This document shows, piece after piece, positions 30,646-32,880 of a DNA stretch of 64,000 nucleotides (position 1 is the first letter of the stretch; each line of letters opens with the position of its first letter). This stretch comes from a virus. Under the pieces are notes generated by a model, which was given only the letters and a program-made list of their open reading frames with translations, did no database searches and had not been told where the DNA came from. A program made the position numbers and the translations under genes. Location of the stretch: UHGV virus genome UHGV-0164982; one strand, given 5' to 3'.

Positions 30646-31349
30646 CGTGTAACCTTATATTCCTGTCTCAGATTTAATATCGGATTCAACCGAATCCTCT
30701 TCTTCTAAATTTTAAAGTCGTGTAACATTACAAAATATTCAAGGTTAAATTGAACATATATTATTGTTATTTAGATGTAAGTATATCTGAGCACTCGTTA
30801 CAATACCAGAATATTACCATCATTCATCATAAAGTAACTAGCGAAGGTGTGGCGGAAACGTAAGTAAGTTGTTCTCCAGGTAATTCAATACCTGTTCTTT
30901 CTAAATAGCTGCGCGGAATAGTGATCTACTTTCGTCCGCCCTTGCAGGGCGAGACATTAGGTCGGCGTCCCCTACCTGACCGTGCTGCATCAGGCTTGAG
31001 TGTGTTGCCCATATGCAACATACCACACATCAGTAAACGGCAAGTGTAGTAGTATTAGGCGCAGAAATTTAGTACAGCCCAGAATGCGCCGTAACAATCA
31101 ATAAACCACTACACCCGCGCCCTGGCTGCAATTCGGTAACAGGGGATCCCCCCTAGCTTCCAGCGTGATTAGCGCCTTCAGCATGACGGAATATACCCGT
31201 AAATACGAGGAACTCTACCCAAAGGCTGTTAAGAACCGGCTGTTACGCTGAATGAAAAAGGACGTAACAGGTAAGGACGCTGACCAGAAGATGGCCCCTT
31301 CTCGTTCATCTGGTTAATCAAACCAGCGCCCTTGCCTGTTATGCCTCCT

Positions 31350-32880
31350 CGTTCCCTAATACACAGACGGGGACAACCCCGTGGTGTCAGGCTTCTTAGG
31401 CCGCAACCATCATCAGATCATCGTTTGCATTTACTTTAATGGTCAGTTTGTGACTGCTCCCCGCCCTGTCGGGCGAGGCTTCCCACTTCTCAGGCCACAA
31501 CCGTCTGTGCGACGGATTTACGCTGGCCTCCATGGGCGGAGACGACGAGTCCCGCCGCCTGTAGTTCCAGTATTCCTTTTTGCCGGATGTTGAGTGCCGC
31601 ATTGATATCGCGGTCGTGCTCTGCTCCACATTCAGGGCATCGCCAGATGCGTTTATGAAGCGGCATTTCCGGCATTTTGTAACCACAACAATAGCAGGCT
31701 TTCGAACTGGCAAACCACTGGTCGAGTTTTACTAGGTGAACGCCTTTTTCCGCTGCCTTGTACTCCAGCTTTGTGATGAAGCTATGCCAGCCTGCATCAC
31801 CTATCGCTCTTGCCAGATTGTGGTTTTTCATCATGTTGGCTGTTTTCAGCATCTCGACAATTACCGCTTGGTTTTCGTCAACAATTGCACGAGAGAGCTT
31901 GTGTTGAAAATCAGCACGGGCATTAGCCACCCGTTCGTGTAACGCTGCCAGACGGATTGTGGCCTTTTTACGATTCGCGCTTCCCTTTTGCTTGCGGGAT
32001 AAGGCTTTTTGTTTGCGTCGCAGATTACGGCTGGCATTGATGAGATGGCGGGGATTTGCAATTTTTACCCCATCAGACTTGATGGCAAAGTGCGATAATC
32101 CCATATCTAGGCCAGTAACTGTTGATATCAACGTGGGTTTTGCCGGAGCTTCCATGCCATCATCACAGAGAATTGAAGCATAGTATTTCCCCGTTGCTGA
32201 ACAGGTGATAGTGATGCTTTTCAGCTTTCCATGAAGTTCACGGTGAAGGCGTGCTTCTATTAGGGACAGTTTTGGGATTTTGATGGCATTATCCAGCACC
32301 TTAATCCCGACACAGTGATAGCTCGATTGTTTTCCGTGTTTACGTTTAAACGTCGGGAACCGCGCTTTCAGCTTCGGATTAAAAAAGTTGGAAAATGCCA
32401 CATCAAGATTAATTACCGCCTGTTGCAACGCAATAGAATCATATTCTTTAAGCCATCCATACCTGCGGGATTTCTTTGCCACTGCAAGCAGCGGTTTCAG
32501 ATCGTTACGCGGACTTAAATTTACTCCATGTCGCTGGTAAGCATGTTTTTTGATGTGAAGAGCTTTGTTGTACGCAAAGCGCACTGCACCGAACTGGGCA
32601 TTGAGGTACTCTGCCTGTTCTGGTGTCGGGTAAATGCGTACTTTTGTTGCTCTTAACATAGTCACCGCTCATTGATACAGGCTTTTTATGCTAACACCGT
32701 AATGATTTTTTTAAAGCCCTGTTGGCTTTTCGCCTTATATACCCGCCCGCATTAGGCGAGGGTTTACGGCGTTTTTCGCTAAACCGCCGCAAAGTCGCTA
32801 ACCATGACGAAACCCCTGAAAAAAACGCCCACCCGAAGATGGGCAAACTGGATGGAAGCTCGTTACGCACTTCGGAGTTG
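31350..32880 (-). mobile_element. IS609-like element lacking tnpA (approximate ends)
   Basis: tnpB with no Y1 transposase ORF nearby; subterminal hairpin GAGTTGCC...GGCAACTC and terminator near 32820-32900; ends not mapped. Confidence 0.45.
31490..32665 (-). CDS. tnpB: TnpB, IS200/IS605-family (IS609-like) RNA-guided nuclease
   Basis: 391 aa, RuvC-like motifs and CxxC...CxxC zinc finger; closely resembles E. coli IS609 TnpB (InsQ) as I recall it. Confidence 0.85.
   Translation of the reverse strand: MTMLRATKVRIYPTPEQAEYLNAQFGAVRFAYNKALHIKKHAYQRHGVNLSPRNDLKPLLAVAKKSRRYGWLKEYDSIALQQAVINLDVAFSNFFNPKLKARFPTFKRKHGKQSSYHCVGIKVLDNAIKIPKLSLIEARLHRELHGKLKSITITCSATGKYYASILCDDGMEAPAKPTLISTVTGLDMGLSHFAIKSDGVKIANPRHLINASRNLRRKQKALSRKQKGSANRKKATIRLAALHERVANARADFQHKLSRAIVDENQAVIVEMLKTANMMKNHNLARAIGDAGWHSFITKLEYKAAEKGVHLVKLDQWFASSKACYCCGYKMPEMPLHKRIWRCPECGAEHDRDINAALNIRQKGILELQAAGLVVSAHGGQRKSVAQTVVA

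Follow-up and report, generated by a model that had tools for sequence, protein, structure and literature searches.

A mosaic spacer in a P1-like phage-plasmid holds a broken copy of a candidate tmRNA-like tag RNA family of enterobacterial phages

The DNA analysed here (64,000 nucleotides of the UHGV virus genome UHGV-0164982; below, the window) belongs to a P1-like phage-plasmid: near-identical or identical copies of 29700-33100 lie on 94-130-kb E. coli plasmids, and its flanks keep the gene order of phage P1 (rdgC/hrdC, dmt, then the C1-controlled Pban promoter). This report concerns the 844-bp segment at 30646-31489, which is bounded by the start codon of a lone 311-amino-acid gene (29710-30645, minus strand; the orphan gene) and by the stop codon of tnpB (31490-32665, minus strand), and it concerns the tag RNA, a candidate family of phage RNAs resembling transfer-messenger RNA (tmRNA), of which the segment holds a broken copy. 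A first-pass annotation had described the segment as a 0.85-kb spacer poor in open reading frames (ORFs) and had found no tRNA T-loop motifs in it. The spacer is real: the longest ORF wholly inside has 42 amino acids, and ARAGORN calls no tRNA or tmRNA anywhere in the window.

In P1 (NC_005856) the order is dmt, the C1 operator with Pban, a dicF-like region with a terminator, and the tag RNA, and the same order is found in the window. The P1 leader then runs into tRNA-Asn, tRNA-Thr, tciABC, tRNA-Ile, ban and dbn, all of which are replaced in the window up to a truncated dbn. Since P1 transcribes this region on the window's minus strand, the anatomy is described in the minus-strand sense. The features, including those of the tnpB-bearing insertion sequence (IS), are as follows:

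30646-30762, minus strand: upstream region or 5' untranslated region of the orphan gene, AT-rich (28-31% GC), with a hairpin GGATTCGGTTGAATCC at 30682-30697
30763-30901, minus strand: 3' fragment of a P2-type phage integrase, a pseudogene remnant (82% identity, close to the 3' end, to genes annotated as 'phage integrase')
30902-31073, no strand assigned: 172-nt stretch like the CP4-57 intA-yfjH intergenic region (~75% identity, blastn)
31074-31114, no strand assigned: 41-nt junction between P1-derived and foreign DNA; P1 homology ends at 31115 (GCAGCCAGGGCGCGG)
31115-31346, minus strand: distal RNA array of the P1 ban-operon leader, within a stretch 91% identical to P1 68923-69292
31326-31340 (5' strand) and 31266-31280 (3' strand), minus strand: stem module within that array
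31141-31154, minus strand: GGGGGGATCCCC hairpin within that array
31347-31449, minus strand: 3' portion of the tag RNA core (partial covariance-model match; sub-gathering Rfam tmRNA_permuted match)
31429-31449, minus strand: single-stranded pre-tag region of that portion
31396-31428, minus strand: its tag reading frame ANDDLMMVAA plus stop
31367-31382, minus strand: its fused hairpin, where a 33-nt deletion sits (alignment to P1 and pMB7206_1)
31347-31372, minus strand: remnant of its terminal hairpin
31430-31620, minus strand: predicted omega RNA, scaffold ~31450-31620 and guide ~31430-31449 (AAACTGACCATTAAAG...), placed after the published TnpB model
31450-32778, minus strand: tnpB-only IS200/IS605-family element of 1329 bp (empty site in P1 and pMB7206_1), its right end (31450-31489) within the segment
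32779-32818, minus strand: 5' portion of the tag RNA core (..UUUCGUCAUGGUUAGCGACUUUGCGGCGGUUUAG), placed by alignment and cut off from the remainder by the IS
32819-33039, minus strand: upstream P1 context (P1 annotation, alignment and terminator scan)
32819-47, minus strand: intrinsic terminator (terminator scan)
between that terminator and Pban, within 32819-33039, minus strand: region annotated as dicF-like in P1
33010-39, minus strand: C1 operator with the Pban promoter (P1 annotation)

Scanned by E-value against Rfam, the region 29500-34000 gave within the segment only sub-threshold tmRNA matches and no omega-RNA-like family. The match to tmRNA_permuted lies at 31396-31499 (32 bits against a gathering threshold of 47, E = 7e-4), and its alignment covers UAAAU GCA AAC GAU GAU CUG AUG AUG GUU GCG GCC UAA, that is, a start-less tmRNA-like reading frame for the peptide ANDDLMMVAA (31396-31428), which the first-pass annotation had overlooked; P1 gives the same sub-threshold match.

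Pattern scans of viral contigs together with blastn against GenBank phages uncovered a family behind this match. A core of ~190 nt is present in 436 phage records (blastn), in each case in an unannotated gap, frequently next to tRNA genes: its hosts are Punavirus/P1-like phages (in P1 itself at ~68.88-69.08 kb, the P1 annotation being blank over 68893-69347), the lambdoid phage HK633 (between PR'/qut and the holin gene), T1-like phages and DS8, the N4-like phage Bp4 and its relatives, Ackermannviridae (Marshall), Cronobacter phage ESP2949-1 and an Aeromonas phage. Across these unrelated lytic and temperate phage families the core is conserved at 75-90% identity. Moreover it occurs in 137 of 5426 complete E. 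coli chromosomes and was never annotated by PGAP. Among species-representative genomes the pattern GACCATN{1,2}AAAGTAAATGC gave 92 loci, 89 of them chance matches and only three true ones (two Escherichia contigs and one contig from a metagenome-assembled genome labelled Bacillota), suggesting that the motif is rare in such genomes. In the literature on phage tmRNA, tmRNA-like and ssrA-like elements in these phage families, of which our coverage is incomplete, no description of the element was found. The tag RNA is a previously unannotated RNA family in well-studied phages.

The reading frame was exactly 10 codons long, counted from its GCN codon, in all 217 elements compared, with the pattern AN[DE]....[AV]A followed by a stop. 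Their frames fell into 33 nucleotide versions and 19 peptides, among the latter ANDDVVLMAA (8 nucleotide versions including the stop codon), ANEEMYLAVA, ANDNTFLAVA, ANDEQFLAVA, ANDSEVLMAA and the ANDDLMMVAA of the window. Tag positions 1-3 and 10 were fixed as amino acids and varied synonymously (GCA/GCT, AAC/AAT), while the stop was kept as TAA, TAG or TGA. Furthermore, entropy was 1.06 at third codon positions versus 0.63 at first and 0.41 at second positions, and the ratio of nonsynonymous to synonymous variation (pN/pS; from 33 related short sequences, phylogeny ignored) was 0.52 in the tag frame versus 1.84 and 1.01 in the other two frames. Upstream of the tag, 82 of 86 contexts lacked any ATG, GTG or TTG from the in-frame stop up to the first Ala codon, none of the 86 had a Shine-Dalgarno motif, and 77 of them had an in-frame stop 8 codons upstream; in lineage L064 a 1-nt insertion upstream of the tag was tolerated. 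Small ORFs in the other two frames (e.g., MQTMI) were rejected as candidates, being not conserved.

Structure was assessed on an alignment of 43 diverse core members, for which five helices were proposed, comprising a long-range closing helix, a two-part hairpin in which the stop and the tag codons just before it are enclosed, and a further hairpin whose loop pairs with a downstream strand to give a pseudoknot. Standard pairs were formed in 94.8% of the cells versus 85.0 +/- 0.5% in shuffles, a value that none of the 500 shuffles reached, and when partners were slid by 1-3 columns pairing fell to 34-47%. Nine pairs showed double-sided changes; compensatory changes were found in three helices and in the pseudoknot, all four pairs of which covary (CCGA/UCGG, CCAG/CUGG, CCAA/UUGG, GUCG/CGAC). 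In the terminal hairpin a conserved loop, GGUGUGAUUAAUAAU, caps stems that differ yet compensate (GCCC/GGGC, UCCCUGA/UCAGGGA, GGCGGGAG/CUCCCGCC, CCCCGU/ACGGGG). The parts of the core follow in a set order: an A/U-rich single strand, the 10-codon frame, the stop-codon hairpin, an H-type pseudoknot, the closing helix and the terminal hairpin. With our own covariance model of the core, intact members reach 123-200 bits across the full 190 positions. Judged from these comparisons of sequence, it is highly probable that the members of this family are functional structured RNAs whose tag is translated.

Several observations weigh against this interpretation and against its extension to tmRNA: i) the pN/pS values carry the limits given with them, and the regular expressions by which tags were collected demanded GCN-AAY-GA at the start; ii) at gathering thresholds, Rfam calls no tag RNA core in the whole window; iii) no canonical tRNA-like domain (TLD; 7-bp acceptor stem, T-arm and 3' CCA) adjoins the core, and ARAGORN at default settings calls none in the window, P1, HK633, Bp4, DS8 or Marshall; iv) G3:U70 is absent from the candidate tRNA-like modules described below, and an encoded CCA mostly so; v) of 164 elements that could be followed for 1.6 kb downstream, 33 lack a canonical T-arm in that interval, and the cores of L064 and ESP2949-1 run directly into protein genes.

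The core has the design of the tmRNA message domain, and the Rfam models tmRNA_permuted and beta_tmRNA align over its pre-tag and tag region. It has neither the TLD nor the G3:U70 pair by which a tmRNA is recognized, and its scores stay below the curated ones (24-33 bits for RF04321 against a gathering threshold of 47, and 13-19 for RF01850 against 84). Run by default on 248 loci, ARAGORN called only genuine E. coli ssrA. At thresholds of 80-95% it called tmRNAs with exactly these tags in Bp4, P1, HK633 and the loci L277, L280 and L330; these relaxed calls use inconsistent 5' acceptor strands. A one-piece tmRNA in Bp4 (ARAGORN -ps90) was rejected, the downstream T-arm of the relative L332 being part of a tRNA-like unit that is complete in itself, 5' strand included.

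Downstream of the core lie candidate tRNA-like modules, which are aberrant and have no normal anticodon arm. In P1, lambdoid and T1-like phages the module reads UGUGGUG, a D-like hairpin, a hypervariable insert of 40-90 nt, a T-like hairpin and CACCACA-A; its T-loop is canonical (UUCGAUU) in some members, and the changes in its 3' strand are all wobble-compatible. The N4-like module is of the form GGCAUGU...CCAUGCC, and that of Marshall AUGGGAG...CUCCAAU-C-CCA with a GAAA-capped stem. The 3:70 position is occupied by U3-A70 (UGUGGUG/CACCACA), C3-G70 (Bp4 and L332) or G3.A70 (Marshall). Among the 164 elements with 1.6 kb of downstream sequence, 91 have a UGUGGUG-type module and 131 have some canonical T-arm within that distance; thus co-occurrence of the core with a tRNA-like module is common but not universal.

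The arrays downstream of the core (P1 ~69.35-70.05 kb; L218, L220, L277 and L330) contain two repeated kinds of scaffold, a stem module (ACAACAGGUAAGAGCA...UGCUCUUACCGUUGU) and the cloverleaf-like UGUGGUG...CACCACA, in both of which the stems are conserved and covary while inserts of 40-90 nt are hypervariable. In P1 two ORFs on the opposite strand, plp and upl, overlap these scaffolds and may be mis-calls. Also in P1 (L001, ~3660-3790, minus strand), directly after tRNA-Thr, there is an unannotated stem-enclosed unit with a canonical T-arm (GGGUUCGAAUCCC) and no other tRNA features. The arrays of N4-like phages and Ackermannviridae (L219 2320-2391 and 2683-2761; L221 ~2210-2370 and ~2690-2770) contain several tRNA-like units that ARAGORN misses or calls oddly (tRNA-Ala cgc, tRNA-Cys aca), one of them with a 7-bp acceptor stem (UGCGGUG/CACCGCA) closed across an insert of ~130 nt.

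Such positions in arrays bear on the rival that survives best, albeit as an unlikely one: that the core is a cis-acting leader (attenuator, processing platform or antitermination element) for the downstream tRNA and ncRNA array and the operon, its frame being incidental or a leader peptide. Within RNA arrays the core is indeed always the 5'-most module, immediately following a promoter or terminator (PR'/qut in HK633, Pban in P1, a TTGACA..TAGATT promoter in DS8), with the other array modules downstream of it in every case, and the two ACGGGG/CCCCGU pairs of P1 could form alternative hairpins. However, translation of a leader peptide would require a start codon and a ribosome-binding site, of which the former is missing from 82 of the 86 contexts and a Shine-Dalgarno motif from every one; this reading would not explain why ANx...xA is conserved or why the pre-tag sequence resembles that of tmRNA; and in L064 and ESP2949-1 the core is followed by ordinary protein genes, not by RNA arrays.

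In the window, the core is interrupted by the tnpB element. Alignment with P1 and with the IS-free sister plasmid pMB7206_1 reveals an insertion of 1329 bp after ...GGTTTAG and before AAACTGACC..., the empty site in both being TTTAG followed by AAACTG. The encoded protein is a genuine TnpB (NCBIfam guided_TnpB, 346 bits against a cutoff of 100; Pfam domains HTH_OrfB_IS605, OrfB_IS605 and Cas12f1-like_TNB). Other copies of the IS on unrelated plasmids, at 92-93% identity, end at exactly the same bases: the three copies compared all end ..GCAGTCAC, with left flanks TTAG (window), TCAG and TCAG and unrelated right flanks, and CCTCGCC../..GGGCGGG hairpins stand at both IS ends. Discrete ends, no target duplication and insertion 3' of a short motif are the IS200/IS605 pattern. 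There is no tnpA (Y1 transposase), tnpB being the only gene of the 1329-bp element, which is therefore non-autonomous. The site of insertion, between UUUAG and AAAC, is the most conserved motif of the tag RNA (comparison copies L339 and L340).

For IS200/IS605 elements an omega RNA is reportedly associated with TnpB, with ISDra2 as the paradigm, in the work of Karvelis 2021 and Altae-Tran 2021. An omega RNA at the 3' end of tnpB was rightly expected, but the span first proposed for it, 31330-31560, was misplaced: the empty site in P1 and pMB7206_1 and the independent IS copies fix the right end of the IS at 31450, and since the IS stops there, 31330-31449 is not IS DNA. With the right end at 31450, the predicted scaffold must sit at ~31450-31620, mostly outside the segment and within the 3' end of tnpB, with 31430-31449 as guide and only 40 bp of scaffold in the segment. 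The terminal hairpin predicted at the right end (CCUCGCCC/GGGCGGGG) is strong; overall, the predicted omega RNA region folds no more stably than shuffles (z = -1.4), and it matches no Rfam family. By analogy, such an RNA would extend beyond the right end into 31430-31449 and, if the flank serves as guide, would target the uninterrupted P1 allele (TTAG plus AAACTGACC...); TTAG followed by AAACTGACC is found in every intact P1-type core.

These data also bear on the view that the tnpB-proximal third of the segment represents an omega RNA encoded by the IS, the remainder being a structured RNA or regulatory spacer of the locus, which we rate as improbable, somewhat more so than the leader reading. 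In its favour are the genuine TnpB, the strong hairpin at the right end and right flanks that differ between copies, as a guide model expects. On the other hand, of 31330-31489 only the 40 bp at 31450-31489 are IS DNA; 31115-31449 is P1 backbone, present in IS-free plasmids, and the rest matches foreign fragments; and no omega-RNA-like family of Rfam is matched.

The tag RNA copy of the window is a relic, for three reasons: i) the IS splits it within the invariant UUUAG-AAAC motif; ii) a 33-nt deletion relative to P1 and pMB7206_1 takes away the 3' strands of the hairpin, the pseudoknot and the closing helix; iii) the P1 array beyond 31115 (downstream in the sense direction) is gone. Our covariance model accordingly recovers only positions 45-146 at 31355-31449 (59.5 bits) and a weak 17-bit 5' fragment at 32714-32822, 1.3 kb away.

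Could the whole family be a relic too, that is, a chance likeness, or an inert fragment of a bacterial ssrA gene that phages acquired a single time and that drifts without function? Rfam scores below gathering (24-33 bits versus 47) and the missing TLD would fit, as would the ssrA locus being a frequent integration site and the presence of CP4-57-like DNA in the window. Yet this is very unlikely, given i) the 75-90% identity across unrelated lytic and temperate families; ii) the compensatory changes in three helices and the pseudoknot; iii) the invariant 10 codons, a stop kept via different codons and synonymous-biased variation; iv) that our core model does not match E. coli ssrA and that direct homology to this gene was rejected, blastn matches being of at most 40 nt with E >= 0.08; and v) that island integration duplicates the 3' end of ssrA, not its tag region (PMC4131195). 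Least probable of all is an ordinary micro-gene with non-canonical initiation yielding a free peptide of 10-17 residues, which coding-type conservation and a CUG 6 codons upstream in many members would favour, but which is contradicted by the change of that CUG to CGA in the N4-like group, by the L064 insertion that breaks the upstream frame, by the uniform lack of a Shine-Dalgarno motif and by the in-frame stop 8 codons upstream in 77 of 86 contexts.

The overall reading, which we regard as probable, is a dead mosaic segment in the window and a tmRNA-like tag RNA family in intact phages. In those phages the start-less frame might be decoded by a template switch of the trans-translation type on stalled ribosomes, whose nascent chains would thereby receive a C-terminal tag specified by the phage. 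A separate, aberrant tRNA-like module lying further along the array, or else the host, would supply the acceptor function, and tags ending in LMAA, LAVA or MVAA instead of ALAA would change the fate of the tagged proteins. By analogy with tmRNA, such a mechanism is a serious possibility, although we would put its chances somewhat below even. More tentatively still, many enterobacterial phages (P1-like, lambdoid, T1-like, N4-like, Ackermannviridae) may encode a hitherto unrecognised split tmRNA, consisting of a message module and a separate non-alanine tRNA-like module or host factors, which during infection would take over or re-route the ribosome rescue and proteolysis of the host.

The rest of the segment has several origins. 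The stretch 31115-31449, 91% identical to P1 68923-69292 (between the 'dicF-like region' and tRNA-Asn), is matched in 592 plasmid records, IS-free plasmids among them. The stretch 30902-31073 has blastn matches on several hundred E. coli chromosomes, in K-12 in the intA-yfjH intergenic context of CP4-57, and no Rfam match; it represents a conserved non-coding CP4-57-like stretch of ~175 nt (L004 7001-7177). In the RefSeq annotation, the position equivalent to 30801-30913 holds a site-specific integrase that is partial and frameshifted. Finally, 30646-30762 occurs only alongside the orphan gene, in ~17-23 records, and may carry the promoter of that gene. Given these piecewise origins from P1, CP4-57-like DNA, an integrase and an IS, the '0.85-kb spacer' is a recombination scar plus an IS end and no single unit, and we are confident that the segment is a mosaic of mobile-element leftovers with a non-functional copy of the tag RNA.

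Three events would account for it: i) a recombination that swapped the interval from the middle of the ban-operon leader up to dbn (tRNAs, tciABC and ban) for ~1.6 kb of foreign DNA, the cargo of which would comprise the lone orphan gene with its AT-rich upstream region, the P2-type integrase stub and the 172-nt CP4-57-like stretch; ii) insertion of the tnpB-only IS200/IS605 element 3' of TTAG in the leader; iii) the 33-nt deletion.

On this map, little is left of the ~650 bp that had been called unexplained: they resolve into the P1 leader array, the CP4-57-like stretch, the integrase fragment and the upstream region of the orphan gene, and only 31074-31114 remains. Nor is the segment wholly IS terminal sequence or a decayed gene, since just 40 bp are IS and ~139 bp decayed integrase. 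The contrast in composition drawn earlier, between a GC-rich segment and AT-rich genes around it, applies in part: 30900-31500 is GC-rich (50-53% GC), whereas 30600-30899 (28-31%) is the most AT-rich part of the neighbourhood, and tnpB itself has 44-57% GC. Both palindromes that had been quoted exist at slightly shifted positions, GGATTCAACCGAATCC at 30682-30697 rather than 30684-30699 and GGGGATCCCCCC at 31142-31153 rather than near 31145. The claim of many short inverted repeats, however, finds no support: a repeat finder gives one palindrome, and the 2.5 kb scanned hold 6 terminator-like hairpins versus 3.0 +/- 1.7 in shuffles.

Around the segment, the orphan gene (29710-30645, minus strand) encodes a predicted pPIWI-associating nuclease (Pfam pP_pnuc_1 at 1.5e-34 and pP_pnuc_2 at 2.1e-33). 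It has no adjoining Argonaute/PIWI gene, occupies the place of the tRNA-tci-ban block of P1, and may be stand-alone defence or anti-defence cargo. Its product was considered as a relative of YfjH, encoded next to the CP4-57 stretch in K-12, and this was rejected, the two proteins being unrelated. The far end of the replacement is marked at 28983-29500 (L002 5284-5801) by a truncated, frameshifted glycosyltransferase gene, the homolog of P1 dbn. Elsewhere in the window, gathering-level Rfam matches at 4211-4421, 48512-48686 and 52144-52350 (two C4 antisense RNAs, a c4-a1b1 element, isrK and sok) fit a P1-like immunity region and a hok/sok module.

For the window itself, the spacer is explained, there is no hidden gene and the RNA is dead; its interest lies in the family that its P1-derived part reveals. 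If the tag is translated, then either trans-translation can accept a template with no covalent link to a TLD or the phages supply an unconventional acceptor. Either way, the view of ribosome rescue during infection would change, and the predicted tags could be searched for by mass spectrometry. Moreover the family suggests that 'empty' gaps beside phage tRNA genes are organised RNA arrays, and some of the small ORFs annotated there may merit re-examination.

As in known TnpB omega RNA systems, the 3' end of tnpB plus the right end forms the predicted scaffold, the flank beyond it the predicted guide, and a short target motif (TTAG/TCAG) abuts the left end. Unlike ISDra2-type elements, that of the window has no tnpA and its predicted omega RNA has no Rfam match; it explains only 40 bp of the segment and the ~20-nt guide.

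The likeness of the tag RNA to bacterial tmRNA (RF00023, RF01850 and RF04321) extends along the core: i) an A/U-rich strand ends in ..AUAAAU before a start-less GCA resume codon; ii) the phage tag ANDxxxxxAA has 10 codons, as has the E. coli tag ANDENYALAA; iii) the stop codons lie in a hairpin (compare helix 5), followed by an H-type pseudoknot (compare PK2) and a long-range closure (compare helix 2); iv) E. coli ssrA shares 11 identical nt (nt 202-212) with the GUGGAAGCCCU hairpin of P1. In contrast to tmRNA, the phage core lacks a contiguous TLD, G3:U70 and PK1, and usually an encoded CCA, its tags end in LMAA, LAVA or MVAA rather than ALAA, and it is embedded in multi-module RNA arrays. 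In the survey of Hudson et al. 2014 (PMC4131195), ssrA was found among non-chromosomal plasmid and viral records only in mycobacteriophages, the tmRNA of Bacillus phage G and the TLD-only RNA of DS6A having been added from outside the survey dataset. Those phage RNAs are canonical tmRNAs or the tRNA-like half alone, unlike the tag RNA; as in mycobacteriophage DS6A, however, a phage carries one half of tmRNA, here the message half instead.

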